A stretch of DNA of 64,000 nucleotides from an uncultured Coriobacteriaceae bacterium (GTDB taxonomy: Bacteria > Actinomycetota > Coriobacteriia > Coriobacteriales > UMGS124). The position numbers and the translations under genes are program-made. The stretch's first letter is position 1. Each line of letters starts with the position of its first letter. The notes under the pieces are model-generated. The model was not told the origin of the DNA, did no database searches, and worked only from the letters and a program-made list of their open reading frames with translations. This document shows positions 10,815 through 38,537 of this stretch, in pieces. The DNA lies in NCBI GenBank assembly GCA_900539345.1, contig UQBS01000005.1:610-64609 (forward strand). The letters run 5' to 3'.

Positions 10815-10959
10815 GGGTAACTCCTCCTCTTCCTGGCACGGGCCAGTCTGCCCGCGTCCCTTACCTAACCTAGCTGATGATAGTTTTAGCCGCGAGGTCG
10901 GGCAACAATCAAATGCGCGGAACTGCACTCAAGCCGCCGAATTCTGCCTAACCGCCACA

Positions 10960-11012: not shown

Positions 11013-12302
11013 TTAGAGCTTCTCTCCGCGGGCCTCGGCCTCGTCGGCTTCCTTCTCCAGCATGTCAATCATCTTCTGGCCGTACTTCTTGGCCTTCTCG
11101 CGGTTCTCGGCTTCCTTCTGGCGCTGCTTCTCGTCTTCCTCGACCTTCTTCTTGGTCTCGGGGTCGTCGACGATGAGGCGGTTGCCGTCAACTTCGATAA
11201 ACTCGATGGCGTCGAGAGGACAGATGTCCGAACACAGGGCGCATGCCACACAGTGCGTGGTGAGTACCGAAATCTTGCCCCCCACGATGTCGATCGCGTT
11301 CATGGGGCACACATCGGCGCACTCGCCGCAGCCGTCGCACTTGTCAGTGGACTGGGGGGCGTCGAGCAAAATGTTGCCAGCCGTCTTGGGATGGTTGGCA
11401 AGAGCCACGAGCATGAGCTGGCGGGTGTTGGTGAGCACGCGCTTCTTGTTTTCGGTGTTCTGTGCACCAGTCAGACGGTCGAGCGACTTCTGCAGCTCGG
11501 TAATCTGCTTGGAATGCTTGGCAAGCTTCTCGGCACCACGAGCGAGCTTGGCGGTGAGGGGGTTCACCTTCGAGGCCGTCATGCCAAGCGACTTGAGGGA
11601 GCCGTTGACAAAGGCCTTGCGCTCGGCCTGATGGTCGACCTCGAGCACCATGTCGCGCTCGCGCTCCACAAGGTCGACGGTCTCGCCGCTCCACTGCTCG
11701 CCCAACGTGATGGCGTCGGTGTAGCACTCCTCGCCGGTGGTGGTGCGGCACTTGTCGCAGATGCCGCGCGGCAGATAGATGCCGACGTTGCCATACTCGC
11801 ACAGAATCGAGTACCACACCTCGGCCGAGACGTCGCCCACGCAGGGCAGGACTACCTGAGCGGCCTCGGGCACATGACCCAGGGCGCGCGTGCAGGTGAC
11901 GTAAACCATCTCGTTGGCCTCGGCAGCCTTGCAGATCTTGTCGTAGAGCATCTTGGGGGCGTGCATGCTCGACACGAGGGCGTCGGTGGGGCAGGCAGCC
12001 ACGCACAGGCCGCACTTGCGGCAGTCGCTCTTGATCTCAAGCGCGCCGTCGTCATCGAAGAAGATGGAGTCTGTCGGGCAAACCTGCAGGCACAGGTCGC
12101 AGCTGGCGTCCTCCTTCTTGCAACGCACGCACATGGCGGAGTTGCCCTTGGGGACGACCTTGTAATCCGACGGCGTCCACACGGGCTCAGCGCTCTCCTC
12201 CGTGGTGGCTCCGCGCACAAAGGCGGTCTCGTCAGAGATCTCGCCCGTGATGGCCTGGAACTCCTTTTGCAGGCCTATGAGTTCGTCGAGGAAGTCTGCC
12301 AT
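11013..12302 (-). CDS. polyferredoxin-like protein (several 4Fe-4S ferredoxin-type Cys motifs) with a Lys/Glu-rich C-terminal tail
   Basis: Cys clusters: CVRCKKEDASCDLCLQVCP, CRKCGLCVAACP, CDKCRTTTGEEC, CDGCGECADVCP, CVACALCSDICP. C-terminal tail DDPETKKKVEEDEKQRQKEAENREKAKKY... No TM segment seen. Confidence 0.75.
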   Translation of the reverse strand: MADFLDELIGLQKEFQAITGEISDETAFVRGATTEESAEPVWTPSDYKVVPKGNSAMCVRCKKEDASCDLCLQVCPTDSIFFDDDGALEIKSDCRKCGLCVAACPTDALVSSMHAPKMLYDKICKAAEANEMVYVTCTRALGHVPEAAQVVLPCVGDVSAEVWYSILCEYGNVGIYLPRGICDKCRTTTGEECYTDAITLGEQWSGETVDLVERERDMVLEVDHQAERKAFVNGSLKSLGMTASKVNPLTAKLARGAEKLAKHSKQITELQKSLDRLTGAQNTENKKRVLTNTRQLMLVALANHPKTAGNILLDAPQSTDKCDGCGECADVCPMNAIDIVGGKISVLTTHCVACALCSDICPLDAIEFIEVDGNRLIVDDPETKKKVEEDEKQRQKEAENREKAKKYGQKMIDMLEKEADEAEARGEKL

Positions 12303-23554: not shown

Positions 23555-24028
23555 CTACTCCTGCGCGGCTGCCTCTGCCGCGGCCTTCGCCTCGGCCTCG
23601 GCCTTCTTCTTGGCTGCCATCTCGGCCTTGAGCTTGGCTGCCTTGGCGGCCTTCTCAGCTGCAGCCTGCTCGCGGCGCTGGCGCTCCTGAGGGCTCACCT
23701 CGTAGACCTCCACCACGCGCTCCTGGGCGGGGTCGGTGTAGTGGTTGAGCATGCTGAGGGCGCCCTCATGGCACGCCTCGATGCAGCTGCGGCACTGGAT
23801 GCAGCGAAAGCGGTCAATCGACCAGGTCAGCGCCTTGCGATCGACATCAAGCGCCTGGGTGGGGCACACGCTTGCGCACAGGCCGCAATACCTGCACGAA
23901 TCGGGCTCGAGATGCACACGCCCCTTCGTCTGCTCGAAAAAATGTGGCTTCTCCAGGGGATAGAGCCTCGTTGCGGGCTTGGAGAAAAGGCTCTTGAGGG
24001 TCATGCGCCCGAGCTTGAATTCTGCCAT
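23555..24028 (-). CDS. echF: Ech-type hydrogenase 2x[4Fe-4S] ferredoxin subunit (NuoI/HycF-like)
   Basis: CRYCGLCASVCP and CIQCRSCIEAC motifs. Has an unusual Lys/Ala/Glu-rich C-terminal tail of about 45 aa. Confidence 0.85.
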   Translation of the reverse strand: MAEFKLGRMTLKSLFSKPATRLYPLEKPHFFEQTKGRVHLEPDSCRYCGLCASVCPTQALDVDRKALTWSIDRFRCIQCRSCIEACHEGALSMLNHYTDPAQERVVEVYEVSPQERQRREQAAAEKAAKAAKLKAEMAAKKKAEAEAKAAAEAAAQE

Positions 24029-24043
24029 GATGTGTTACCTCCC

Positions 24044-25132
24044 TTAGCGCTCGGCGCAGCTGATGCACGGGTCGATGGTCAGGATGATGTTGGGGACGTC
24101 GGCCAGGTCGCAACCGGCAAGCGCGCCCGCCATGCCGGGGATGTTCGCCGATGTGGGAGTGCGCACACGGAAACGGTCGAGGAACTTGGTGCCGTTGCCG
24201 CGCACGTAGTAGAACGCCTCGCCGCGGGGCTGCTCAACGCGCATGAAGGCCGAGGAGCCCTCCTCGGGGTTACCCTTCACGTCGACGCGCACCTCGCCGG
24301 CCGGGATGCGGCCCACCATCTCGTTGATGATGTCGATGGACTGGCGCACCTCCTCGATGCGCACCTTGCAGCGGGCGTAGCAGTCACCCTCGGTAGACAC
24401 CACGGGGCGGAAATCATACAGCTTGGAGTAGGCGTCGATGCCCGCCATGCGCACGTCCATCTCAATGCCACTTGCACGACCAAACGGGCCCACGCAGCCG
24501 TAGTTGATGGCATCCTGCTTCGAAAGGTAGCCCACGCCCACCAGGCGGTTCTTCACCGAGTCGTCCATGAGGAACGTGTTGGCAATCTGGTCATACTCCT
24601 CAAGCAGGCTTGCAAGGACGCCGCAGATGGCGTTGAGCTCGGTGTTCTCGATGTCCTTGAAGACACCGCCGGGGGTGCAGACCGACAGGATCACGCGGCC
24701 GCCGGCCGTCTTCTCAAAGATGTCGAGCACGTGCTCGCGCAGGCGCCAGGTGTGCATGAAGAGGCTCTCGAAGCCCATGGCGTCGGCCGCAAGGCCCAGC
24801 CACAGAAGATGTGAATGAATACGCGACAGCTCATGCCAGATAACGCGCAGGTACTGGCCGCGCTCGGGCACCTCGATGCCCATGAGGCGCTCGACTGCCT
24901 GGCTGTAGCCCATGGAGTGACCGAAGCTGCAGATGCCGCAGATGCGCTCGGCCACGTGCACAAAGTGCTTGTAGTCACGCTTCTCAACGAGCTTCTCGAG
25001 GCCGCGGTGCACGAAGCCGATCTGGGGGACGGCCTCCACCACACGCTCGTCCTCGAGCACGAGGTCGAGGTGCACGGGCTCGGGCAGCACGGGGTGCTGG
25101 GGGCCGAAGGGCATGACGGTCCTGGTTGCCAT
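24044..25132 (-). CDS. echE: Ech-type [NiFe] hydrogenase large subunit (NuoD/HycE-like)
   Basis: N-terminal Ni-binding RICGICSFGHS and C-terminal DPCISCAER at the very end of the protein. 362 aa is typical of group 4 enzymes. Confidence 0.9.
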   Translation of the reverse strand: MATRTVMPFGPQHPVLPEPVHLDLVLEDERVVEAVPQIGFVHRGLEKLVEKRDYKHFVHVAERICGICSFGHSMGYSQAVERLMGIEVPERGQYLRVIWHELSRIHSHLLWLGLAADAMGFESLFMHTWRLREHVLDIFEKTAGGRVILSVCTPGGVFKDIENTELNAICGVLASLLEEYDQIANTFLMDDSVKNRLVGVGYLSKQDAINYGCVGPFGRASGIEMDVRMAGIDAYSKLYDFRPVVSTEGDCYARCKVRIEEVRQSIDIINEMVGRIPAGEVRVDVKGNPEEGSSAFMRVEQPRGEAFYYVRGNGTKFLDRFRVRTPTSANIPGMAGALAGCDLADVPNIILTIDPCISCAER

Positions 25133-25144
25133 AGCTCAGGCCTC

Positions 25145-25549
25145 CTATTCCGCCGCCGCAGCGGGCTTGGCGGCTGCGACAGGCTTGGCCTTGCCTTGCG
25201 GGGCCTGGGCCATGGGTGCGGGAATGTGCAGGTGATAGAAGCCTCCGCGGTAGTCGAGGTTCATGTCGACCACGGTGAGGCCGTAGAGGTCGTGCATCTC
25301 GTTCTCAAACATGAACGCCACGGGGTAGATGCCGCCCACGCTGGGAATCTCGTCGGAAGAGCTTACGCAGACGCGCAAGTTGGCCACCTCGTTGGTCGCA
25401 TCGTCCACGAAGGAATAGAGCAGCTCGAAGGCGTCGTCGCCGTTGCGCGAGGCGCAGCACTGAGCGAAACGCCAGCCCTTGGCCTTGTACGCCTGGGCAG
25501 CGCCGACGAGCTCGCCCAGGGTCGTCTCGATGAAATCTACCTGTGCCAT
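25145..25549 (-). CDS. echD: Ech-type hydrogenase NuoC-like subunit
   Basis: 134 aa. ...PVAFMFENEMHDLYGLTV resembles the NuoC/HycE-N signature. Position between the small and large subunits. Confidence 0.8.
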   Translation of the reverse strand: MAQVDFIETTLGELVGAAQAYKAKGWRFAQCCASRNGDDAFELLYSFVDDATNEVANLRVCVSSSDEIPSVGGIYPVAFMFENEMHDLYGLTVVDMNLDYRGGFYHLHIPAPMAQAPQGKAKPVAAAKPAAAAE

Positions 25550-25552
25550 GCC

Positions 25553-26110
25553 TTAAGCCTCCTCATGGACGACGTCTGCCTCGTGGGCAATCTGCTCGTC
25601 CTGCTGGGTCGTCATGTGAACGCGGCGCAGCGTCTGCTCCTGCTCGCCGGGGGCCGACATGTGGCCCTGCGGAAGCGGGGCGCCCGCGGCGAGGGCGGCG
25701 CGCTTCTCCTCAAGCACTGCCAGGCCCTTTACCACGCCGTCGATGATGGACTGGGGACGCGCGGCGCAACCGGGCACGTACACGTCGACAGGGATGACCT
25801 TGTCCACGCCGCCCTTCACGTTGTAGCAGTCGTGGAAGATGCCGCCCGAGCAGGCGCAGATGCCCACGGCCACAACGACCTTGGGCTCGACCATCTGCTC
25901 GTAAATCTGCTTGATGACGCCCTCGGCCTGCTCGTTGACCGAGCCGGTGACCAGGAAGATATCAGCGTGCTTGGGGTTGCCCGTGTTGATGATTCCGAAG
26001 CGCTCCACGTCATAGAGAGGCGTGAGACACGCCAGGACCTCGATGTCGCAGCCGTTGCAGCTTGCGCCGTCGTAGTGGATGAGCCACGGGGACTTGCTTG
26101 TAAAAGACAT
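25553..26110 (-). CDS. echC: Ech-type hydrogenase small subunit (NuoB/HycG-like, proximal 4Fe-4S)
   Basis: SCNGCDIE, GICACSGG, PGCAARP motifs. C-terminal extension of about 50 aa. Confidence 0.9.
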   Translation of the reverse strand: MSFTSKSPWLIHYDGASCNGCDIEVLACLTPLYDVERFGIINTGNPKHADIFLVTGSVNEQAEGVIKQIYEQMVEPKVVVAVGICACSGGIFHDCYNVKGGVDKVIPVDVYVPGCAARPQSIIDGVVKGLAVLEEKRAALAAGAPLPQGHMSAPGEQEQTLRRVHMTTQQDEQIAHEADVVHEEA

Positions 26111-26120
26111 GTGCCCCCTC

Positions 26121-27023
26121 CTAGAAGATGATAACGCCGCTGCTCAGATAGTAGAACAGCGAGAAGTTGACGATGCTGGCCACGAGCGCCACGCCCCAGG
26201 CGCCCTTGAGCATGACCTGCCACTTGACGCGGGCGAAGTTGTTGTCGATCAGGATCTCGATGAACCAGACGATAGCGACGACAACGATAGCAAGCAGGAT
26301 GGACAGCGGGTTGGCATTGATGAAGAACATGCCGACCCAGCCCAAGAAGAGCACATTCTCGTACCAGTGCGTGACCTCGACGATGGCCAGCACGCGGCCG
26401 CTCATCTCGGTGGTGGCGCCACGGACGAGCTCCTGGTGAGCGTGGTGCGCCATGGAGAGGTCGAAGGGCGACTTGCGCAGCTTGATGGTAAGCACGAAGA
26501 GCAAGCCCAGGAAGATGAGGGGCATGCACACGGCCAGGGTGGCGTCGCCGGCAAAGAGCGAGGAGACATCGAAGGAACCCTTGCCCTGAGTGGCGGAGGT
26601 GGTGAGGTAGAGCGCGACGCCCACGAAGAGCACCATGGGCTCGTAGGACATGACCTGCAGGATCTCACGCTGGGCGCCGGTCTGTGCCATGGAAGAGGGC
26701 GACAGGTAGCACGCCAGGATGAAGAACAGGCTCGACAGCGTGATGAGGAAGACGCACAGCAGGAAGTTGCCGCCGCAGAAGAAAACGGCGCCCGCGACGA
26801 TGGCAGCGAGAAGCGCCAACACGACCAGGCAGGTCATCACAGGGTCGAGTCGGCTGGTGTCCTTCTCAAGAAGCTTGCGCATATCGTAGTAGGGCTGCAG
26901 CAGAACCGGGCCGCGCCTGCCCTGCATGCGGGCCGTGATGATGCGGTCGGCGCCGGCCAGAAGGCAACCCAGCACGGGCGCCAGGATGATGAAGGCGCAC
27001 ACCGCCACAATGGTGAGGGCCAT
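26121..27023 (-). CDS. echB: Ech-type hydrogenase membrane subunit (NuoH/HycD-like)
   Basis: 300-aa polytopic membrane protein. RMQGRRGP near the N-terminus is typical of NuoH/HycD. Its start abuts the echA stop (no intergenic gap). Confidence 0.85.
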   Translation of the reverse strand: MALTIVAVCAFIILAPVLGCLLAGADRIITARMQGRRGPVLLQPYYDMRKLLEKDTSRLDPVMTCLVVLALLAAIVAGAVFFCGGNFLLCVFLITLSSLFFILACYLSPSSMAQTGAQREILQVMSYEPMVLFVGVALYLTTSATQGKGSFDVSSLFAGDATLAVCMPLIFLGLLFVLTIKLRKSPFDLSMAHHAHQELVRGATTEMSGRVLAIVEVTHWYENVLFLGWVGMFFINANPLSILLAIVVVAIVWFIEILIDNNFARVKWQVMLKGAWGVALVASIVNFSLFYYLSSGVIIF

Positions 27024-29018
27024 TTAAATCACGCTCCCCATGAGGTTGATGAAGACGTAGCTGAGGCCCACAGAGCAGGCGATGCCCGCCAAGGCGATGA
27101 GGATGCAGACAATGGAACCGATGCGAGAAAGCTGCTTCTCGTCGAAGATGGACTCCATGTACCAGGCACGCTGGGCCGTGGAGACCTCGCCGCCCAGGGC
27201 GCCGGCGAAGCTCGTCTGCGACAGGCCCACGCCGCCCAGGTGCGGCATCTCGGCCAGGGAGGAGCGCTTCTTGGCGCGCAGGGCCACGATGAGCGGCACG
27301 ATCACGACGACCACGGCACTCACGGCCATGATGGTCAGGTCGGACAGGCTGGGGGCCAGCATCGAGCCACCCACGAGACGCTTGACATAGGGAGTCACGA
27401 TCGTCGAGCTCACCCAGGGCAGGGCCACGGCGAGGGCGACGACGCCGAAAGCCATGACGGCAAGTGCCGCCCACTCGCTCTTGTGGACGTCCCTCTCAAG
27501 GTTATCTTGACCCTGAACGTTGCACAGGATCTTGCCGAGCCACTTGGCCCAGAAGAAGAACGTGGCGGCGCTGCCGAAGCCCATCATGACGATGAGCATG
27601 AGCACGCCTGAATCGATGAAGGCACCCAGGGCAGCCCACTTGGAGATGAGCATGCCGAAGGGAGCGACGAACATACCGCAGATGCCCAGTGCCATGAGGC
27701 ACGCGAGCTTGGGCATGCGGGAGACGAGCGCGTCCATGCTCTCGATGTCACGGGAGCCGATGTGGTGCTCAGCGGTGCCCACGCACAGGAAGAGCAGCGA
27801 CTTGGCCACAGCGTGGAAGATGAGCAGGAACACGCCAGCCCACACGGCCGCCGCCGTGCCGATGCCAGCGCAGGTGACGATGAGGCCGAGGTTGGCGACC
27901 GTGGAGTAGGCCAGAACGCGCTTGGCGTTGGACTGGGAGATAGCGATGAGCGAGCACACGAGGAACGTGGTGGCGCCCACAAGCATCACGGAGATGCCCA
28001 CGGGGTTGAGCGCGGTCGTGTTGCCACCCGCGGCGAGGTAGGTGCCCATGAGGGGCGACAGGCGAATCAGCAGGAAGACGCCGGCCTTGACCATCGTGGA
28101 GGAGTGCAGAAGGGCACTCGTGGGCGTGGGCGCAACCATGGCGCCGAGCAGCCACGTATGGAAGGGCATCTGGGCGGCCTTGGTGAGCGCCGCAAAGGCG
28201 AGCAGGGCCAGCGGCAGCATGGCGAGGCTGGCAGAGGCGCCGCCGCGGCTCACGAAGGTGCTGAGCTCGAGGGTGTGCATCTGCGAGCCCATGTAGATGA
28301 GGGCAAGCGTGAACGCGATACCGCCGAGCATGTTCATCCAGATCTGACGGAACGAGTTGGCCGTGGCCTCCGCCGTCTTGGTATAGCCGATGAGGAAGAA
28401 CGAGCAAACGGTGGTGACCTCCCACATGGTGAGCATCCACATCAGGTTGTTGAAGAGCACGAGACCGAACATAGCGGAGAGGAAGGCGAACATCACCGCG
28501 AAGAAGACAGGTTGGCGATCGGGCGCAGACTCCTTGCCCTGAGCGGCGAGCTCGTCTTGATGATGCTGGAAGTCACGCATGTAGCCGCAGGCGTACACGA
28601 TGATGCCGCTGCCGATGATGCCCACGATGAGCACCATGATGGAGCTGAGCGTGTCGATGTAGACCGGACGCAGCACGTGCACGCTGTGCGCAACGCCGAA
28701 CTCAAGCACGCACACCGCAATGGCCTGGATGCATGCGAGCGCCAGCACGCCCATACGGCGGGCGTTGATGGCACGCCAGGCAACGTAGGCGGCGAGCAGC
28801 AGGTCGATGGCGAAGCACACCCAATCGAGCCACGGCATGCTATCCCTGTAGTACGTGCCCGCGCCCCTGAGATGGGCACTTGCCAGGGTGATGCTGGCGA
28901 TGATGATGACGGCGGCCGAAACGTACACGACCGCCTCGCGCACCCTGCGTCCCGGGGCCAGCAGACAAAGAACCGCCGCCACCAGCGGGATGAGGATGAG
29001 CAGGCCGATGATACCCAC
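27024..29018 (-). CDS. echA: Ech-type hydrogenase antiporter-like membrane subunit (NuoL/HycC-like)
   Basis: About 660-aa polytopic protein with NuoL/Mrp-like motifs (WEVTTVCSFFLIGY, PTPTSALLHSSTMVKAGVFLL). GTG 29018 follows GGAGG by 4 nt. The TTG 29048 used in the track has no RBS. Confidence 0.85.
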   Translation of the reverse strand: MGIIGLLILIPLVAAVLCLLAPGRRVREAVVYVSAAVIIIASITLASAHLRGAGTYYRDSMPWLDWVCFAIDLLLAAYVAWRAINARRMGVLALACIQAIAVCVLEFGVAHSVHVLRPVYIDTLSSIMVLIVGIIGSGIIVYACGYMRDFQHHQDELAAQGKESAPDRQPVFFAVMFAFLSAMFGLVLFNNLMWMLTMWEVTTVCSFFLIGYTKTAEATANSFRQIWMNMLGGIAFTLALIYMGSQMHTLELSTFVSRGGASASLAMLPLALLAFAALTKAAQMPFHTWLLGAMVAPTPTSALLHSSTMVKAGVFLLIRLSPLMGTYLAAGGNTTALNPVGISVMLVGATTFLVCSLIAISQSNAKRVLAYSTVANLGLIVTCAGIGTAAAVWAGVFLLIFHAVAKSLLFLCVGTAEHHIGSRDIESMDALVSRMPKLACLMALGICGMFVAPFGMLISKWAALGAFIDSGVLMLIVMMGFGSAATFFFWAKWLGKILCNVQGQDNLERDVHKSEWAALAVMAFGVVALAVALPWVSSTIVTPYVKRLVGGSMLAPSLSDLTIMAVSAVVVVIVPLIVALRAKKRSSLAEMPHLGGVGLSQTSFAGALGGEVSTAQRAWYMESIFDEKQLSRIGSIVCILIALAGIACSVGLSYVFINLMGSVI

Positions 29019-29252
29019 GTTGCCTCCACTCTCGAATAGATCCTTCAAGCCGACGGGAAGAGTCCCGTCTGCCTTTACGTAATATCACGAGTTAGCCGTC
29101 TGCAATGTGTGGGTGCTGTGACCCTCCCGACGTTGCCGTTATTTGTCGGCAGGCGGGCAAAGCGGTGGGCAAACGGGCATGCCCGACGGTAGAATGTGAG
29201 GCGTGAAAGGAAACGCGTTCTGAGCAGCCCTGCAGGGCAACGGGAGGTCGGC

Positions 29253-30564: not shown

Positions 30565-31287
30565 TTATTCGGGAAAATATTTCCCAGACTGCAGCAGCGT
30601 GCCTACTCCGTCCGATGAGAATACGTGCAGGTGCCGCTCAACTGGGATTTCGCTAGTTACATAGGTCCCCGCGCTTGTAAGCGTAAATGGCGCCCCTGAC
30701 ATAGGGGGCACGAGCGGGAGAGACTGCGACTCGAACGTCGCAGTGCAAAACGCCGCTATGTATGACGCGTCGCCCATATAGTCGCCTATGAATTCTCCGG
30801 CGAAATAGTTCATGTTCGCTGCGTCGTAGTCCTGATTGTCTTTCCATATAAGCTTGTAGGCGCTGCCGTCTCGCCCGAAAGCCATAAACCATATGCCCAC
30901 GGCAATTTCTTCAACCGCTCCCTCAGGATATCCCGCCTGGACCGTTGCCCCGTAAAAATGCCAACGGTCGTCCTCGGAATAGTCGTCGTAGTACCAGTTT
31001 CCCGCAATTGAACACGGGCGGCCCTCGTACATGTCCTGTCCATCGAGCTGGTATGTCCCCTGCGCCTGGCCGGCGTCGGCAGGAAGGGCATACTGCTCGA
31101 CAAATGCGGCGTCATCTGCAGAAATCACGTCGTTGATTTGATACCGGCCGAAAATCTTCTGGAACCGGGCAGCCAGCATATCCCCGTCTGGCTCGTCGGC
31201 ATGGGCCATGGGTACACAGCCAACGCCAGCCCCCACCGCCATCGCGGCTCCTGCCACCTTGACTAGTTCACGACGAGAGATAGCCAT
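30565..31287 (-). CDS. exported hypothetical protein with a twin-arginine (Tat) signal peptide
   Basis: MAISRRELVKVAGAAMAVGAGVGCVPMAHA|DEP... The mature part is rich in Tyr/Asp/Gly with no recognisable domain. GC content is visibly lower than in its neighbours. ATG 31287 preferred over GTG 31296. Confidence 0.65.
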   Translation of the reverse strand: MAISRRELVKVAGAAMAVGAGVGCVPMAHADEPDGDMLAARFQKIFGRYQINDVISADDAAFVEQYALPADAGQAQGTYQLDGQDMYEGRPCSIAGNWYYDDYSEDDRWHFYGATVQAGYPEGAVEEIAVGIWFMAFGRDGSAYKLIWKDNQDYDAANMNYFAGEFIGDYMGDASYIAAFCTATFESQSLPLVPPMSGAPFTLTSAGTYVTSEIPVERHLHVFSSDGVGTLLQSGKYFPE

Positions 31288-31339
31288 GCCAACCACCCTT
31301 CCTATCGTTACCTGTCACAGCAATGATATCAGGGGTGCT

Positions 31340-32119
31340 TTAGTACAGTCCAGTCGTGAGGGCGAAGTCGAGGGCACGGGGGCGGATGCCGGGGTAGTGG
31401 CCGAGCCAGGTTTGGGCAAAGTGGAGTTGGTCGAAACCTGCGGAGAGGCAGGCCTCGTCGGAAGGAAACTCGCAAGCACAGATGTCGGCCAGGCGCAGGG
31501 AGATGAGAGCTCGAGTCCAGGAAAGCACGGACGCGTCCATGGTCTTGATGGCGGCGGCGCAGGCGCACTCGGGACACACCACGCCGCCCTCGCTGATGTC
31601 GAAGGCAACCCTGCCCGCCTGCGCCAGCTCGACTGGCTCGCCACAGCGCACGCAGGTGTCCAGACACGGCCGAAAACCCTGCATGGCGGCCGCCTTGAAG
31701 ACAAAGGCGGCCGTAAGCAGGGGCAATACGGGGGACGGTGCCACCTCAAGGGCCTCCAGCGAGGCTGCAAGCAGGGGCAGCAGGCGCGGGTCGTGGTTGC
31801 CCTCCACCGTGAGCTCGCAGGCACAGTCGAGCGCGGCATCGACAAGCACCGCTCGGTCGTAGTCAGCGGCGACGTTGGCATGCGAGCGCACGAGGCGCGC
31901 CTCGCTCACGATAGGCAGACCCCTCCCCTCGCTCACCAAAAGCTCCACCTCGTTGCCCAGGTTCATGGCGCCGGCCAGCTTGGCAGAAGGTTTGCGCGCA
32001 CCCTTGGCGACGACGCGCAGCTGCCCCGCGCAGTCAGCCAGCAAGGTAACGATGAGGTCGCATTCGGCGAGCTTCGTGCGGCGAAGGACTATGCCGTGTG
32101 CCTTGAACTTGCCCGACAA
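31340..32119 (-). CDS. recO: DNA repair protein RecO
   Basis: FKAHGIVLRRTKLAECDLIVTLLADCAGQLRVVAKGARK (OB fold), Zn-finger CVRCGEP...CPEC. TTG start. Confidence 0.9.
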   Translation of the reverse strand: MSGKFKAHGIVLRRTKLAECDLIVTLLADCAGQLRVVAKGARKPSAKLAGAMNLGNEVELLVSEGRGLPIVSEARLVRSHANVAADYDRAVLVDAALDCACELTVEGNHDPRLLPLLAASLEALEVAPSPVLPLLTAAFVFKAAAMQGFRPCLDTCVRCGEPVELAQAGRVAFDISEGGVVCPECACAAAIKTMDASVLSWTRALISLRLADICACEFPSDEACLSAGFDQLHFAQTWLGHYPGIRPRALDFALTTGLY

Positions 32120-32128
32120 GGAGGCGTC

Positions 32129-33223
32129 CTAGAGGCTCGTGGCCAGGCGGTCGAAGTCGAGCAGAATCTGGCTTGCATGCAGGCACATGAGCTCGACGGC
32201 ACCTGCCTCGAAGAGCTCGACGGCCTCGGCAACGGTGCGGGCGTCGGTGGTGGCACGCACGGCAACGCCGGGCTCGACAGTGGCACACACGAGGCGCACG
32301 TCCTCAGGCGTGGCGCAGCGCTCGGCTCCCGTGCAGGCGACGACGTAGTCGAGGTGCGCGGAAGAGATGGCGTCGACGGCCTGGCAGAGTACCTGCGGGG
32401 TCAGCTGGCCGCACTCGATGGCCACGCCCACCGCAAGAGCGCCGTCGCAGCAGTCGTCATCGTCATGACCGCAGCCGCAGCCACACGCGTCATCATCACA
32501 AGCGTGATCGTGATCATGGCCGCAGGCACAGTCATCGTCGTCGCAGGCGCAGTCGTGATCACGGCCTTGCTCGCATGTGCAGCCCTCGTCATCGCAACCG
32601 CAAGCGCACTCGTGGGTGTGCTTGCTGGCACCCGCGTCGTCGCGGTCGCAATCGTGGTCATGCCCACAGGCACAACCAGCCTCGTCGTCCTCGCAGGTAC
32701 AAGTCTCATCATCGCAGTCACAGCCGCAATCATGGTCATGGCCGCAGGCGCAAGCATCCTCGTCCTCGCACTCTTCGCCGTCGGCGCGGGCGGTGCGAAT
32801 CACGCTGAGCACGGGGTCCATGGCTTCGTCGAACTCGCCTTCGACAAGGGCGGCGGTGTTGGCGGCAAGGCACACCTCGCCCACACCCACCGAGGCGAGC
32901 ATGGCGCACTCAAAACACAGGGCGTCACCGAGCACGCGCCCGTAGGGCCAGCCCAGAAGCGCGGTGACGCTCACGGGAAGACCCTCCTCGCCAAACGACC
33001 AGGCAAGGCGCGGTGCATCCCCCACCCAGGTCGCAAGCGCCTCGTGCCCCGCTCCGGCAGCCTCAAACGCCTGCTGCAGCGTGGCACCCGGGCCCGCAAG
33101 GGGACTGGCGAGCAGCGGGATGAGCCTAGCCGCAAGCTCCTGGCCCAGACCCTCCAGGTCGACCTCTTCGCCTTCGCACAAGCAAGACGCCAAACGCCCC
33201 AGTGTCTCTTCTGCCTGCGACAT
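32129..33223 (-). CDS. DeoC/aldolase-fold homologue lacking the catalytic lysines, with a roughly 110-aa Cys/His/Asp-rich insert
   Basis: Alignment by eye to B. subtilis/E. coli DeoC: VTALLGWPYG ~ VIGFPLGA; EVCLAANT ~ EVDMVINI; GVAIECGQLT ~ KVIIETCLLT; HLDYVVACTG ~ GADFVKTSTG; GVAVRATTDARTVAEAVELFEAGA ~ IGVKASGGVRTKEDVDTMVEAGA. The insert (aa about 148-260) is ...CACGHDHDCGCDCDDETCTCEDDEAGCACGHDHDC...CACGHDHDHACDDDACGCGCGHDDDDCCDG. ATG 33223. Confidence 0.7.
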   Translation of the reverse strand: MSQAEETLGRLASCLCEGEEVDLEGLGQELAARLIPLLASPLAGPGATLQQAFEAAGAGHEALATWVGDAPRLAWSFGEEGLPVSVTALLGWPYGRVLGDALCFECAMLASVGVGEVCLAANTAALVEGEFDEAMDPVLSVIRTARADGEECEDEDACACGHDHDCGCDCDDETCTCEDDEAGCACGHDHDCDRDDAGASKHTHECACGCDDEGCTCEQGRDHDCACDDDDCACGHDHDHACDDDACGCGCGHDDDDCCDGALAVGVAIECGQLTPQVLCQAVDAISSAHLDYVVACTGAERCATPEDVRLVCATVEPGVAVRATTDARTVAEAVELFEAGAVELMCLHASQILLDFDRLATSL

Positions 33224-33362
33224 CTCGATCCCCTTCTCTTTGGTGAGTCGCCGCTTCAGGCGGCGTGCTGTCAAATGGCCCCGGCGTCCCCTGGGCCAAT
33301 ACAAAACGGGCGCCCTGCCGTGGCTGCTTGCCACCTGCAGGACGCCCTGATGTCTCAAAGCC

Positions 33363-35021
33363 TTACGCGCCCTCGCCGTAGCCGAAGCGCTTGATCTGCG
33401 CGGCGTCGCTACGCCAGCCGGGCTTCACCTTGACGTTGAGTTTGAGCATGACCTGGTTGCCGAGCAGGCGCTCCAGGTCGTGGCGGGCCTGCGAGCCGAT
33501 GCGCTTGATCATCTTGCCGCCGGCGCCGATGACGATGCCCTTCTGACCCTCGCGCTCCACGTACACGGTGGCGTTGATGTGCGAGATGTTGGCCTTCTCG
33601 TCATAGCTCGTGGAGTCGACCTCCACGCCCACGGAGTGCGGCACCTCGTCGCGGGTGTTGAGCAGGACCTTCTCGCGGATGAACTCGGCCACCACGACCT
33701 CGGGGGTCATGTCGGTCTGCATGTCCACCGGGAACCACCGCGGACCCTGCGGCAGGTGCGCGGCCACGACCTGCAGGAACCCGTCGACGTTGAAGCCCTC
33801 CTGGGCGCTCACGACGATGGCCTCGTCAAACGGGCAGAACTCGCGCATGTGCTCCACCTGGGCGCGAGCCTGGTCCTGGTCGATGATGTCGGCCTTGGTC
33901 ACCACGAGCACCTTGTAGGCGCGGCTCTCGGCCACGTGCTGGGCCACCCACTCATCTCCGCGACCCGCAGGCTGCGAACCGTCAAGCACCATGGCGACCA
34001 CATCGACATCCTTGAGCGCGTTGAGCGCCGAGATGTTGAGCTCCTCGCCAAGGGCATCCACCGGCTTGTGCAGGCCGGGGGTGTCCACAAGCACGACCTG
34101 CATGTTGGGCTCGTTATACACGGCCGAGATGCGGTGACGCGTGGTCTGCGCGGTGGGCGAGGTAATGAGCAGCTTGTCGCCCACGATTGCGTTGATGAGC
34201 GTGGACTTACCGGCGTTGGGGCGACCGACCAAGCTCACGAAACCGCTCTTGAACGGGCCCTCGTAGGTGGCAGGGTGCATGAAGCGCGTCTCGTCCTCGT
34301 CGTCTTCCTGCGGAGCCTGGGCACCGGCGGCACCCTGGGAGGCAAAGAAGGCGTCGATGAGGGCGGTGCCGGACAGGCCGTCGGGGTTGTCGAAGCCAAC
34401 GACGTCGTCCTCGTCGTCCCAGTCCTCGTCATCGTCGTCGAAGTCCTCGTCGCCCTCAGAAGGCAGGTCCTGCCAAAGAACGGGCTGGCTGGTAGTCGGC
34501 TTGGCGACGGGGCGGGCGTCGGTGCCTTCGGCGGCGTGGTCCACCGTGGGGCCGATGTTGATCTGCTCGGGCGGCACGCCCGTGAAGTCGGCCAGGTAGG
34601 AGCGCTCGAGCGCCTCCATCTCCTCAGCCTCGCGAGTATCCTCGTGGTCGTAGCCCATGAGGTGCAGGCAGCCGTGCGACAGCAAGAGACGCATCTCGTC
34701 GGCCGGATCGTTGCCAAACTCAGGAGCCTGCTTGGCCACAACCGAGGGGCAGATGATGAGGTCGCCCACCATGAAGGGCTCGCCGTCCTCCACGTCGTCG
34801 GGGTCGTCGATGTTGAACGACAGCACGTCGGTGGGCTTGTCGATGCCGCGGTACTCCAGGTTCAGGCGGTGAATCTCGTCGGCGTCGACGAAACTGACCG
34901 AGACCTCGCAAGGCTCGGGGCAACCCTCCCCCTCAAGCACGCACGCCACCAGGCGCTCGATTTCCTCAGCGCTCAGGATATCCTGTTCTACCTCGTCGTT
35001 TATCTCAATGCGCATGTCCAT
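33363..35021 (-). CDS. YbeY (rRNA maturation endoribonuclease) - Era (GTPase) fusion protein
   Basis: A single 552-codon ORF. aa 1-150 are YbeY (...DVLSF..., SHGCLHLMGYDHED zinc motif). aa about 150-256 are an acidic linker (DEDFDDDDEDWDDEDD). aa 257-552 are Era (FVSLVGRPNAGKSTLIN, VDTPG, TKAD, C-terminal KH domain). Confidence 0.9.
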   Translation of the reverse strand: MDMRIEINDEVEQDILSAEEIERLVACVLEGEGCPEPCEVSVSFVDADEIHRLNLEYRGIDKPTDVLSFNIDDPDDVEDGEPFMVGDLIICPSVVAKQAPEFGNDPADEMRLLLSHGCLHLMGYDHEDTREAEEMEALERSYLADFTGVPPEQINIGPTVDHAAEGTDARPVAKPTTSQPVLWQDLPSEGDEDFDDDDEDWDDEDDVVGFDNPDGLSGTALIDAFFASQGAAGAQAPQEDDEDETRFMHPATYEGPFKSGFVSLVGRPNAGKSTLINAIVGDKLLITSPTAQTTRHRISAVYNEPNMQVVLVDTPGLHKPVDALGEELNISALNALKDVDVVAMVLDGSQPAGRGDEWVAQHVAESRAYKVLVVTKADIIDQDQARAQVEHMREFCPFDEAIVVSAQEGFNVDGFLQVVAAHLPQGPRWFPVDMQTDMTPEVVVAEFIREKVLLNTRDEVPHSVGVEVDSTSYDEKANISHINATVYVEREGQKGIVIGAGGKMIKRIGSQARHDLERLLGNQVMLKLNVKVKPGWRSDAAQIKRFGYGEGA

Positions 35022-35151
35022 GCTGTCGCAGCCTTTCTTGTCATACGGCAACTCGGATGTAACACGGGACCACCGCGGCGCAGCAGGCAAGGGCGAGGCG
35101 CGCAATGCACAGCCTCTTGCCCGATGCGGCCGCAGCGGCCCCGCAGGTTTC

Positions 35152-36210
35152 TTATTCCGTGGCTCCCTGGTAGCCGTTGGGGTTCATGCTCTGCCACTTC
35201 CAGGAGTGGGCACACATGTCGTCGATGTCGTACTGGGCCTCCCAGCCCATGAGCTCCTTGGCCTTCGAGGCGTCACAGTAGGTCTCGGCGATATCCCCGT
35301 CACGACGCAGGCAAATCTCGTAGGGCAGTTCCTTGCCACAGGCACGCTCAAAGGCATGGATGACGTCAAGCACGCTGTAGCCGTGGCCCGTGCCCAGGTT
35401 GAACACATGCACGCCGTGCTTGCCGCGCATGTAGTTGAGGGCGGACACATGGCCACGTGCCAGGTCGACGACGTGGATGTAGTCGCGCACGCCGGTGCCG
35501 TCGGGCGTGGGGTAGTCGTCACCGAAGACGTTGATGTGGTCGAGCTGACCCACGGCGACCTTGGCCACGTAGGGCACGAGGTTGTTCGGGATGCCCTTGG
35601 GATCCTCGCCGATGAGACCGCTCTCGTGGGCGCCGATCGGGTTGAAGTAACGAAGGAGCATGACGTTCCAACGCTCGTCGGCCGTGTAAAGGTCGCGCAG
35701 CATCTGCTCGTTCATCGTCTTGGTACGACCGTAAGGGTTCGTGGCCGGCTTGAGCTCGGAATCCTCGCGCACGGGCACATGGTCGGGCTGGCCATAGACG
35801 GTGGCCGAAGAGGAGAACACGATGTCGTACACGCCGTGGTCACGAAGGGCGCGTGCGAGCTCGAGCGTGCCGCCCAGGTTGTTCTGGTAGTACTCGATGG
35901 GCTTGTGCACCGACTCGCCCACCGCCTTGTACGCGGCGAAGTGGATGGCGCCGCAGATGGGCTGCTCGTCGAAGATGCGGTCGAGAAGCGCCCCGTCCTT
36001 CACATCGCCCTGGTAGAAGGCACGAACCTTCTTGCCCGTGATGCGCTCGACGCGCTTGAGGGCGACCTCGCTGGCGTTGGACAGGTCGTCGATCACGACG
36101 ACGTCATAGCCAGCGTTGAGCAGCTCGACGCAGGTGTGGCTGCCGATGAAGCCGGCACCGCCCGTGACAAGGATGCAAGGCTTTTCGGACTCAGTTACCG
36201 TATCGGTCAT
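35152..36210 (-). CDS. galE: UDP-glucose 4-epimerase
   Basis: ILVTGGAGFIGSH, YGRTK (YxxxK), C-terminal ...WKWQSMNPNGY typical of GalE. ATG 36210 with a GAAAGGA RBS. Confidence 0.9.
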   Translation of the reverse strand: MTDTVTESEKPCILVTGGAGFIGSHTCVELLNAGYDVVVIDDLSNASEVALKRVERITGKKVRAFYQGDVKDGALLDRIFDEQPICGAIHFAAYKAVGESVHKPIEYYQNNLGGTLELARALRDHGVYDIVFSSSATVYGQPDHVPVREDSELKPATNPYGRTKTMNEQMLRDLYTADERWNVMLLRYFNPIGAHESGLIGEDPKGIPNNLVPYVAKVAVGQLDHINVFGDDYPTPDGTGVRDYIHVVDLARGHVSALNYMRGKHGVHVFNLGTGHGYSVLDVIHAFERACGKELPYEICLRRDGDIAETYCDASKAKELMGWEAQYDIDDMCAHSWKWQSMNPNGYQGATE

Positions 36211-37670: not shown

Positions 37671-38537
37671 TTATGCGCAGTCCTCGGCGGGTTTGGGGCA
37701 GGCAATGCCTTTTTCCAACGCGCCCACCACATCAAGAGCCTCTTCAAGCCCAGCGTGCAGCACGCACACGCCATTGGGCAGCACCTCAACGCGGCTCGAG
37801 AGGGCACCCAGCGGACTCTCCCACAAGCCGCAGGCAAACCCACGGGCGTCCTCGGCAGGCTTGAACGCCACGCGCCAGCCAAAGCCGTGCTCCATGCTGC
37901 GGCGCGCCTCGGCATTGGAGGCATCTTCGGCCAAGCCCGGGTAACGCGCCCACACAACGCGCGGATGATGCGCAAGGAACTGGGCGGCAACGAGAGCCCG
38001 GTCGCAACGCGCCTGCGTGACGAGAGCAAGCTGAGGCAGCATGTGTGCCAGAAGATCACGCACGCCGGACAGACTCGGCGCGGCCGCGTCCGGCGCGTCT
38101 GCCCCGATTGCCCTCATGAACCGCTCGAGGGCCCCCTCGCTGCGTGAGGCCACAAAAGCAAGGCCATCAAAGGCCTCGCCGAAAAGGTCACCGAGGTCCT
38201 CCACCGCGATGTCGGCGCCCATCTGGGGCGGACGACACAGATAGGGACCCGCGCCCTCGTTGACCACGACGCGCAGACCATCGCCAGAAGCGGGAGCCTT
38301 GAGCCAGGGGCGCAGCTCGTCGGCCTCGATGGAGCCCGTTGGCTCCACGTGCAGGGTCCTTCGCACCTCGAGCAACTCGACGCAGGTGTCCGCGTCGCAA
38401 AAAAGCGCCCTGCGCGCGGGTTCACCCGCAAGCAGGGCGCCAGTCTTGGCGTGCTCAAGTTGTGCCATGACCTGCTCGACAGCGAGACCCTGGCTAGCGA
38501 TGGTGGAGAAGTTGCGGTCAGGATGCAGCACTGCCAA
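37671..38537 (-). CDS. truncated, probably non-catalytic homologue of Cys/Met-metabolism PLP-dependent enzymes (cystathionine gamma-synthase/beta-lyase family)
   Basis: Matches to E. coli MetB by eye: GADIAVEDLGDLFG ~ GADLVLHSCTKYLNG (PLP-Lys position is Gly-Asp here); QARCDRALVAAQFLAHHPRVVWARYPGL ~ RMELAQRNAQAIVKYLQTQPLVKKLYHPSL; GFGWRVAFKP ~ GFGAMLSFEL; VLHAGLEEALDVVGALEKG ~ RISTGIEDGEDLIADLENG. The N-terminal roughly 100 aa of the family are missing. Start uncertain (TTG 38537 or ATG 38468). Confidence 0.55.
   Translation of the reverse strand: MAVLHPDRNFSTIASQGLAVEQVMAQLEHAKTGALLAGEPARRALFCDADTCVELLEVRRTLHVEPTGSIEADELRPWLKAPASGDGLRVVVNEGAGPYLCRPPQMGADIAVEDLGDLFGEAFDGLAFVASRSEGALERFMRAIGADAPDAAAPSLSGVRDLLAHMLPQLALVTQARCDRALVAAQFLAHHPRVVWARYPGLAEDASNAEARRSMEHGFGWRVAFKPAEDARGFACGLWESPLGALSSRVEVLPNGVCVLHAGLEEALDVVGALEKGIACPKPAEDCA

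Follow-up and report, generated by a model that had tools for sequence, protein, structure and literature searches.

A DeoC-derived protein without aldolase residues carries a Cys/His/Asp-rich loop and may act as a metal buffer in gut Coriobacteriaceae

The gene and its product

The window analysed here is a stretch of 64,000 nucleotides from an uncultured Coriobacteriaceae bacterium (contig UQBS01000005.1 of assembly GCA_900539345.1, positions 610 to 64,609), and the subject of this work is a gene on its minus strand, 32129..33223, which lies between a fused ybeY-era gene and recO. Its product of 364 residues (plus stop codon), referred to below as the window protein, is derived from deoxyribose-phosphate aldolase (DERA, the product of deoC) and is interrupted by a 114-residue insert rich in Cys, His, and Asp. 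The coding sequence is defined by its open reading frame (ORF), by the translation and its homologues, and by the ratio of nonsynonymous to synonymous substitution rates (dN/dS) of the barrel codons. The start codon is ATG, preceded at 7-8 nt by a purine-rich ribosome-binding site, GAGAAGGGGA. Position 33223 is the start, since the sequences of remoter homologues also open with this MSQ...; for the same reason a longer ORF of 409 residues, starting from an upstream TTG, was rejected as the gene. A plus-strand ORF of 728 residues was rejected as a high-GC antisense frame, since homology, dN/dS, and the frame of the internal repeats all favor the minus strand. A strain-specific artefact was likewise rejected, as an identical protein is found on 9-12 independently assembled contigs and the family comprises more than 130 sequence clusters.

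The N-terminal extension (residues 1-22, 33158..33223, minus strand as for all parts of the gene) contains a predicted helix at residues 3-15 and was delimited by AlphaFold2 (AF2) secondary structure and alignment. It carries a family-specific C14-x-C16 pair within RLAxCLCEGEE and is missing from canonical DeoC. The first half of the barrel follows (residues 23-146, 32786..33157, α0, β1-β4, and α4), then the insert (residues 147-260, 32444..32785), which occupies the α4-β5 loop, and finally the second half of the barrel (residues 261-364, 32132..32443, β5-β8 and the C-terminal helix). Both halves were assigned from the AF2 model, in which they have predicted local distance difference test (pLDDT) values above 90, from Foldseek, and from the alignment with the Protein Data Bank (PDB) entry 5dbu. 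The insert was delimited by composition, predicted disorder, and its presence throughout the family.

At the sequence level the relationship to DERA is detectable on both flanks. The TIGR00126 deoC profile matches the window protein with an E-value of 8e-14 and 51.5 bits, below the cutoff of 117.3, and the Pfam DeoC model PF01791 gives no match to it even at E-values up to 1. Among solved structures, residues 83-144 and 261-345 align with residues 57-118 and 120-205 of the DERA chain 5dbu (E 1e-7). The AF2 model, built from an alignment of 126 sequences, places 238 residues at pLDDT of at least 90 and contains the eight strands in order, and the top 45 Foldseek matches in the PDB are all DERA structures, with template-modelling (TM) scores normalized to the target of 0.91-0.93, root-mean-square deviations of 1.6-1.9 Å, and a probability of 1.00. 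In the predicted structure, the two flanks thus together form the triosephosphate isomerase (TIM) barrel of DERA/DeoC. An earlier interpretation of this DNA, made from its letters alone and hereafter called the sequence-only reading, had proposed a DeoC fold for the flanks, and the model and the structure search bear it out. Most of residues 158-259 in the insert have pLDDT below 50 in the same model, with block means of 44-55.

Loss of the aldolase residues

Functional positions were read from an alignment with Escherichia coli DeoC and 81 canonical DeoC sequences. The E. coli sequence served solely as a ruler; it places the D/K/K/K/GG/S residues correctly. At the position of the catalytic Asp102 the window protein has C118 (32870..32872), the surrounding EIDMV being changed to EVCLA. 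The β5 lysine, Lys137, is replaced by G266 (32426..32428; KVIIE to VGVAIE), the Schiff-base lysine, Lys167, by V295 (32339..32341; VKTSTG to YVVACTG, within DYVVACTG), and the proton-relay lysine, Lys201, by R323 (VKASGG to VRATTD). The phosphate-binding pair Gly204-Gly205 is replaced by T326-D327, so that the K201-x-x-G-G element as a whole reads R323-A-T-T326-D327 (32243..32257), and Ser238, which binds phosphate at β8, corresponds to L348. The replacement of all three lysines, already pointed out in the sequence-only reading, is therefore confirmed by alignment at G266, V295, and R323, and the catalytic Asp, the phosphate-binding glycines, and the β8 serine are further losses that it had not listed. 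The only lysine of the entire window protein sits in the insert, and the barrel contains none. Since the catalytic residues are replaced and the sole lysine lies in the insert, class I aldolase chemistry by the window protein is excluded on sequence grounds, and no deoxyribose 5-phosphate aldolase activity is predicted for it.

The barrel has also acquired cysteines. Those at positions 106, 118, 271, 303, and 347 (within 32183-32908) lie outside the insert and are fixed only in the clade of catalytically dead proteins to which the window protein belongs, where active and canonical relatives have V/A, D (the catalytic Asp), T, G, and T, respectively. C106, C118, C271, and C347 are present in 100% of the dead clade, and C303 in 100% and 87% of its two sub-clades. 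The canonical active-site cysteine, C47 in E. coli, is lost in turn and is A64 in the window protein. C118, C271, C303, and C347 are located at or just past the C-terminal ends of β4, β5, β6, and β8, i.e. on the face that bears the active site in TIM barrels, and C106 lies in the helix after β3. A new motif, VRATTDART, is invariant among proteins that are 46-100% identical. It is possible, judging from these patterns of conservation, that the old pocket has been rebuilt as a new metal or cluster site. In the N-terminal extension, C16 is found in 100% of the sub-clade with G266, to which the window protein belongs, in 100% of the active clade, and in 68% of the sub-clade with S266; it is absent from canonical DeoC.

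Substitution rates were compared between the window and five close relatives, the barrel figures coming from four of them (L001, L002, L003, and L005). For the barrel codons, dN/dS is 0.034-0.062 at dS of 0.22-0.35, which is indistinguishable from the neighboring recO (0.046-0.053) and ybeY-era (0.036-0.081) in the same comparison. The dead barrel is thus under strong purifying selection, as much as its neighbors, and is not decaying. Over longer distances the barrel diverges faster: against the loci L006 and L007 it is 60-62% identical, compared with 73-76% for RecO and 89% for Era.

The Cys/His/Asp-rich insert

The 114 residues of the insert include 33 D, 26 C, 13 G, 12 A, 11 H, 10 E, 2 R, and 1 K, with no hydrophobic residue. 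Asp accounts for 29%, Cys for 23%, His for 10%, and Glu for 9%; the 43 acidic residues (38%) give a net charge of about -40. With 37 Cys and 14 His in the whole protein, the count of about 30 Cys and 13 His that the sequence-only reading gave for the insert was close, although the insert itself holds 26 and 11. The insert stands where canonical DeoC has an α4-β5 loop of about six residues. In a (β/α)8 barrel, α-to-β loops and the catalytic β-to-α loops are found on opposite faces, and an insertion at this point need not disturb catalysis.

The octapeptide CACGHDHD occurs three times, starting at residues 158, 184, and 232. A gap-free repeat finder detects five units of 51 nt with 61-80% identity, all in frame, which translate to 17-residue units with the core CxCGHDHDC. 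They are unit 1 (residues 153-169, 32717..32767, EDEDACACGHDHDCGCD), unit 2 (residues 179-195, 32639..32689, DDEAGCACGHDHDCDRD), the degenerate unit 3 (residues 210-226, 32546..32596, CDDEGCTCEQGRDHDCA), unit 4 (residues 227-243, 32495..32545, CDDDDCACGHDHDHACD), and unit 5 (residues 244-260, 32444..32494, DDACGCGCGHDDDDCCD); all rest on the repeat finder and translation, and units 2 and 4 also on dN/dS of the core. Tandem Repeats Finder reports no tandem array in the insert. Across units 1, 2, and 4 the nine-residue core CACGHDHD[C/H] is kept, with dN of 0-0.09 and dS of at least 1.9 or not computable. Because the core is near-identical while its synonymous sites are saturated, the duplications are old and not due to fresh slippage, and the conserved feature is the peptide.

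Relatives and order of events

A protein search over 5.8 billion proteins returned 92 relatives of 33-100% identity and 231-424 residues, all of them bearing the insert. A second search, seeded with a distant family member, added about 45, followed by a sharp break to ordinary DeoC proteins of 222-266 residues and 41-46% identity, several of which are labelled Coriobacteriia. In a library of 1.84 billion proteins clustered at 50% identity, about five representatives match contiguously and the rest are canonical DeoC proteins that match in two pieces; the insert-bearing family is therefore narrow. Its genome matches are all metagenome-assembled genomes (MAGs) of gut Coriobacteriales or Coriobacteriaceae, apart from two records with other names. 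These two, L006 (CAVEWV010000007.1) and L007 (CAVJGP010000007.1), were deposited as Acutalibacteraceae bacterium and Alistipes onderdonkii, and their Era is 89% identical to that of the window; the names probably reflect mis-binning or mislabelling.

Family members were sorted by the residues at the four catalytic positions (Asp/Lys/Lys/Lys). An active group of 36 clusters retains D-K-K-K together with GG and S and has inserts of 29-92 residues (mean 47; 15% C, 14% H). The dead group, i.e. the clade of the window protein, consists of 94 clusters with C-[G/S]-V-R and inserts of 40-135 residues (mean 86; 22% C, 8% H). Between them in residue content are five partly decayed clusters, with D-K-V-A, [A/E]-K-V-E, or D-K-S-K and inserts of 36-75 residues (mean 56; 15% C, 13% H). 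The insert is thus present in all 135 members (94 dead, 36 active, and 5 partly decayed). CxC occurs in every one of these inserts and H.H in 134 of 135; hydrophobic residues make up less than 3% and Lys plus Arg at most 2%, and the composition remains constant despite the variation in length. What the sequence-only reading described in a single protein is accordingly found across orthologues, with the lysines lost in the 94 dead-clade members and the insert length varying from 29 to 135 residues.

Against TIGR00126, the active insert-bearing proteins score 155-165 bits and the dead ones 51-73. P0089 (locus L011), a partly decayed member, reaches 123.8 bits, above the cutoff of 117.3, though its catalytic Asp, Schiff-base Lys, and Lys201 counterpart are gone, and the fully dead P0082 and P0083 carry the source name 'deoxyribose-phosphate aldolase'.

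A neighbor-joining tree of 249 barrel columns, calculated with no bootstrap and indicative only, places the insert-bearing family as one clade nested inside Coriobacteriia DeoC. All proteins with the K167-to-V change fall into one sub-clade, in which the decay is stepwise; D-K-S-K represents an independent loss. As 36 insert-bearing relatives retain every catalytic residue, the insert predates the loss of catalysis and survived it, and in the dead clade it is longer and richer in Cys.

The same α4-β5 loop is the insertion point in several other DeoC proteins (P0139, P0221-P0225, and P0297). P0139 and P0221-P0223 have in common with the family an N-terminal extension and a longer loop, of 20-30 helical-looking residues; the loop of P0225 is His/Asp-rich and Cys-free, and that of P0297 contains ADALADT-type repeats. 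Unlike the family, all of them lack Cys and the CxCGHxH grammar in the loop and keep all catalytic residues. This loop of DeoC seems to be a hotspot at which unrelated insertions are tolerated.

Resemblance to metal-binding sequences

Within the dead clade, CxC accounts for 776 of about 1700 Cys-Cys spacings, or a mean of 8.3 per insert, and a Cys spacing dominated by CxC is the pattern of metallothioneins. Ferredoxin-type CxxC spacing is found in just 13 of the 94 dead-clade inserts (mean 0.14 per protein). On this evidence, the loop grammar favors thiolate and imidazole ligation of divalent ions of soft or borderline character over Fe-S clusters.

The JGI metagenome collection was scanned for DNA encoding C-x-C-G-H-D-H-D-C, which gave 18 stretches, and short or GC-rich spurious frames were set aside in listing the in-frame carriers. 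Among the latter are two FKBP_C (SlyD-type) proteins, L023 and L028, whose C-terminal tails (...GCGCGHDHDCDHDHGDGCSCGHCH and ...GCGCGHDHDCGDDCDCEDGDCGSGGCGCGH) contain the motif, and L019, in which a heavy-metal-associated (HMA) domain is followed by a His/Cys stretch. L019 resembles the N-terminal part of a metal-transporting ATPase, although only its HMA domain was confirmed. The others are a zinc-ribbon protein, a DUF1292 protein whose tail is rich in His, one member of the present family, and a Cys-rich protein of phage-like appearance in two copies.

Chromosomal position

The gene is flanked downstream by recO (31340..32119, minus strand; Pfam RecO_N and RecO_C, tblastn synteny) and upstream by the fused ybeY-era (33363..35105, minus strand; Pfam YbeY, MMR_HSR1, and KH_2). 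A 137-nt non-coding spacer (33224-33362) separates it from era, and a promoter and terminator scan of this spacer yielded no terminator and no convincing promoter. The order galE-ybeY-era-[gene]-recO holds in 12 of 12 genome loci. In a Coriobacteriia MAG, a canonical, insert-free, catalytic DeoC of 230 residues is encoded in the order phoH-HD-ybeY-dgkA-corC-cdd-era-deoC-recO, with era and deoC overlapping by 4 nt, and the short-loop P0139 is encoded directly after era, followed by a 161-residue ORF that matches RecO by tblastn. Since the order era-[gene]-recO holds, canonical deoC fills the same slot, and the tree nests the family within DeoC, the gene is the positional orthologue of deoC, the era-recO slot being the ancestral home of deoC in Coriobacteriia, next to the nucleoside-salvage gene cdd. 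The sequence-only reading had considered a ribosome- or stress-linked role from this position; that idea falls away, as a canonical catalytic deoC occupies the same slot and the synteny is inherited. A link between the loss of cdd and the loss of catalysis was also rejected, because cdd is absent from the locus in active and dead lineages alike.

The ybeY-era fusion encodes 580 residues from the first TTG, or 552 as called in the identical locus L016, and its two parts are joined by a long acidic linker, DEDFDDDDEDWDDEDD. In the loci with a catalytically intact, insert-bearing DeoC (L009-L011 compared), a dgkA-like gene is still present between ybeY and era, and the fusion seems, by comparison of these loci, to go with the loss of dgkA in the lineage with the dead DeoC.

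Surroundings in the window

A group-4 (Ech-like) [NiFe]-hydrogenase is encoded at 23555-29048 on the minus strand, about 3 kb from the gene, as the sequence-only reading had stated. Its subunits are a ferredoxin-like protein (4Fe-4S), a NuoD-like large subunit with a NiFeSe_Hases match, and NuoB-, NuoH-, and NuoL-like proteins. Between the hydrogenase and the gene lie recO, a 243-residue protein with no Pfam match, and a divergently oriented methylase of the TP_methylase fold, presumably RsmI. Otherwise, the scanned part of the window contains core housekeeping genes (aminoacyl-tRNA synthetases, greA, guaA, ychF, DivIVA, SepF, and the dcw cluster), and no other Cys/His-rich gene was found nearby in real frames of the window or of the compared loci.

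Some further genes deserve mention. The 243-residue protein (30565-31296, minus strand) starts with a twin-arginine-like signal, MAISRRELVKVAGAAMAVGAG, and its identity between related genomes ranges from 28 to 98%, which makes it far more variable than its neighbors. A multihaem cytochrome c with an FMN_bind domain adjoins a poly-ferredoxin-like protein (9573-10928 and 11013-12302, both on the minus strand); the pair looks like an extracytoplasmic electron-transfer module, unexpected in a housekeeping region. An ORF of 288 residues (37671-38537, minus strand) matches only the C-terminal part of the pyridoxal phosphate (PLP) enzymes of Cys/Met metabolism (profile positions 171-303 of 381, E 8.5e-7) and could be a PLP-fold protein that has been truncated or has diverged.

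Discussion

We consider, with a little better than even confidence, that the window protein is a multi-site buffer, store, or chaperone for divalent metals that was built on a retired DeoC enzyme. The metal binding of the loop, its stoichiometry, the identity of the metal, and the physiological role are what we infer from the features described above. In the common ancestor of a gut Coriobacteriaceae lineage, the α4-β5 loop of the deoC product would have gained a stretch rich in Cys, His, Asp, and Glu, which would have grown through duplication of a 17-residue unit with the core C-x-C-G-H-D-H-D-C. Some descendants still resemble working aldolases that carry the loop. In the clade of the window protein, the Schiff-base lysine was presumably lost first, and then the Asp, the two other lysines, and the phosphate clamp; after the loss of the catalytic residues, the loop may have lengthened and gained Cys. 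Thiolate, imidazole, and carboxylate groups of the disordered, strongly acidic loop would bind several soft or borderline divalent ions, such as those of Ni, Zn, or Co, in the manner of SlyD tails and metallothioneins. Folded and soluble, the dead but strongly conserved barrel would carry the loop and might also offer a surface for docking. In the cytoplasm, the protein as a whole would then serve to buffer, store, or chaperone metal. The sequence-only reading had likewise proposed a scaffold recruited as a carrier, and this proposal is strengthened both by the dN/dS of 0.03-0.06 in the barrel and by the existence of insert-bearing relatives with an intact active site. Its suggestion of a metal-binding-like module, which can now be called a selected one, has also gained in weight, as the insert is present in all of the approximately 135 relatives, its core is kept at saturated synonymous sites, and its motif is common to SlyD tails and an HMA protein.

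Comparison with known systems clarifies what would be new. With DERA/DeoC, the window protein has in common the (β/α)8 fold, the homology of the flanks, and the chromosomal position of deoC in Coriobacteriia, and its insert-bearing sister proteins with intact residues still score above the deoC equivalog cutoff. It differs from DERA/DeoC in the replaced catalytic residues, in the profile score of 51.5 against 117.3 bits, in a barrel devoid of lysine, in having a 114-residue Cys/His/Asp loop for one of about six residues, in the N-terminal extension of about 22 residues, and in five new invariant cysteines outside the insert, four of them on the catalytic face.

The most instructive parallel is SlyD. 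Its tail is unstructured, variable, and rich in His, Cys, Asp, and Glu, and binds up to 7 Ni(II) (PMC7055735, PMC3292732). It is thought to be a Ni reservoir for the assembly of [NiFe]-hydrogenase, and SlyD of Helicobacter pylori binds Ni and Zn (PMC7055735, PMC3292732). Like the loop of the window protein, it is a length-variable appendage of a housekeeping fold (PMC7055735). The exact CxCGHDHDC motif is found in two SlyD-type tails, and a [NiFe]-hydrogenase is encoded in the genome of the window as well. Unlike the SlyD tail, the stretch in the window protein is internal, at α4-β5, is borne by a TIM barrel rather than an FKBP domain, and is much longer, with a higher Cys content (26 Cys); the activity of the host enzyme is predicted to be abolished here, and it is merely dispensable in SlyD.

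Metallothioneins (SmtA/BmtA) and Ni-storage proteins (Hpn, Hpn-like, and His-rich HypB) combine CxC or CC spacing with mixed Cys/His ligands and high capacity, and the loop resembles them in spacing, in ligands, and in the many ions that it is predicted to hold. Unlike metallothioneins, it has no metallothionein match in Pfam, is not a small stand-alone protein, contains 38% Asp plus Glu, and is placed within a folded domain of 250 residues.

Several observations weigh against a metal buffer on a passive carrier. The insert lengths are 114, 134, 91, 114, 119, and 68 residues in genomes whose neighboring genes are 98-99% identical, and such hypervariability could mean that the exact content of the loop is weakly constrained. 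Taken alone, the insert matches no Pfam family at E-values up to 1, including the metallothionein and metal-binding models, and no PDB sequence at E-values up to 10; against the database of 5.8 billion proteins it gave 323 candidates, none of which was scored, probably owing to composition-bias correction. The sharing of the nine-residue motif with SlyD tails and other carriers is a resemblance in composition and sequence grammar, not homology. In the ORFs that were scanned, which span about 50 of the 64 kb and stop short of the final ~13 kb, there is no hyp or nik gene, metal transporter, or metal regulator, and a relaxed Rfam search over 31000-35500 for a metal-sensing riboswitch upstream of the gene gave only sub-threshold noise of the eukaryotic microRNA type. 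A link of the window protein to the hydrogenase is thus possible but unsupported. Finally, a passive carrier leaves unaccounted for both the strong conservation of the dead barrel and its five newly fixed cysteines, which suggests that the barrel does more than carry the loop.

This last point leads to the main rival, or complement, of the passive-carrier explanation, namely that the barrel was re-tooled and that the invariant cysteines of the catalytic face form a new metal, cluster, or thiol site which the loop feeds, senses, or regulates. The full conservation of C106, C118, C271, and C347 in both dead sub-clades (100% and 87% for C303), the location of four of the five on the catalytic face, and the invariance of VRATTDART all fit such a site, and a dN/dS of 0.03-0.06 seems a stronger constraint than a simple scaffold should require. 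However, no CxxC or CxxCxxC cluster motif is present, and the conservation could instead reflect folding or oligomer contacts, so that we regard re-tooling as the less probable account, though one to be taken seriously. An Fe-S or other cofactor-handling module, or a redox and thiol buffer, could also be imagined in place of a store of the Ni/Zn type: there are 37 Cys in 364 residues, the organism is a strict anaerobe with many Fe-S enzymes nearby, and metallothionein-like proteins also scavenge oxidants. Yet ferredoxin-type spacing is nearly absent (13 of 94) where CxC and GH[DE]H dominate, the nine-residue motif recurs in SlyD tails and an HMA-domain protein and not in Fe-S proteins, and a thiol buffer would leave the high His and Asp content unexplained. 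We therefore think this role improbable.

Two other explanations seem weaker still. If the gene were a neutral relic, i.e. a dead deoC awaiting deletion with a functionless, slippage-prone, low-complexity tract, one could understand that every catalytic residue is lost, that insert length is hypervariable between near-identical genomes, that the same DeoC loop tolerates unrelated inserts such as the ADALADT repeats of P0297, and that the barrel diverges faster than its neighbors over long distances (60-62% against 73-76% for RecO and 89% for Era). Such a relic is, however, largely refuted already by the dN/dS of 0.03-0.06 in the barrel. It is also at odds with intact ORFs and invariant new motifs in over 90 clusters of sequences, some as little as 46% identical, with an insert that is present in every member at constant Cys/His/Asp composition with almost no hydrophobic or basic residues, and with repeat cores kept at the protein level over saturated synonymous sites with no recent tandem array; we hold it to be very unlikely. 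We give equally little credence to the loop as a polyanionic interaction or regulatory module, whether it were to mimic nucleic acid, to bind one of the co-transcribed proteins (Era, RecO, or YbeY), or to regulate an enzyme whose substrate has changed. The net charge of about -40, the long residence of the gene between era and recO, and the acidic linker that the ybeY-era fusion of the same genomes also carries would suit it, but the synteny predates the insert, charge alone leaves the invariant CxC/GHxH grammar unexplained, and a barrel with neither lysine nor phosphate clamp is ill equipped for sugar-phosphate chemistry.

The literature search found no account of a DeoC with such an insert or of a DeoC pseudoenzyme of this kind, in agreement with the sequence-only reading, which knew of no described protein with this architecture; an empty search is absence of evidence only. 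Both underlying ideas, His/Cys-rich metal-binding stretches on housekeeping scaffolds and pseudoenzymes, are already known. At its most ambitious, the metal-buffer explanation may be extended to a previously undescribed family of metal-storage proteins or metallochaperones of gut Coriobacteriaceae, in which a structured metal or cluster site, formed in the old active site by four or five invariant cysteines (C106, C118, C271, C303, and C347), would exchange metal with the high-capacity disordered loop on the opposite face. Clients of such a cytoplasmic protein, the [NiFe]-hydrogenase among them, would receive Ni or Zn from it, for instance, and the series from deoC through an active deoC with the loop to a dead deoC with a longer loop would record the conversion at one locus. 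We put this forward as speculation that is rather unlikely to hold in full.

A practical consequence concerns annotation. Because P0089 passes the profile cutoff and P0082 and P0083 carry the aldolase name, metabolic reconstructions could credit genomes with a DERA step that, as predicted from the residues retained, these proteins cannot perform. If the loop does bind metal, it would represent a new architecture for bacterial metal buffering, with a module like a metallothionein or SlyD tail set within a TIM barrel instead of at the end of a protein. The family would also be an unusually clean natural case of an enzyme that became a pseudoenzyme after gaining a second function, with the canonical, active insert-bearing, partly decayed, and fully dead stages all found at one syntenic locus. 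If so, the finding would bear on how the abundant Coriobacteriaceae of the human gut, with their many metalloenzymes, manage Ni, Zn, and Co.

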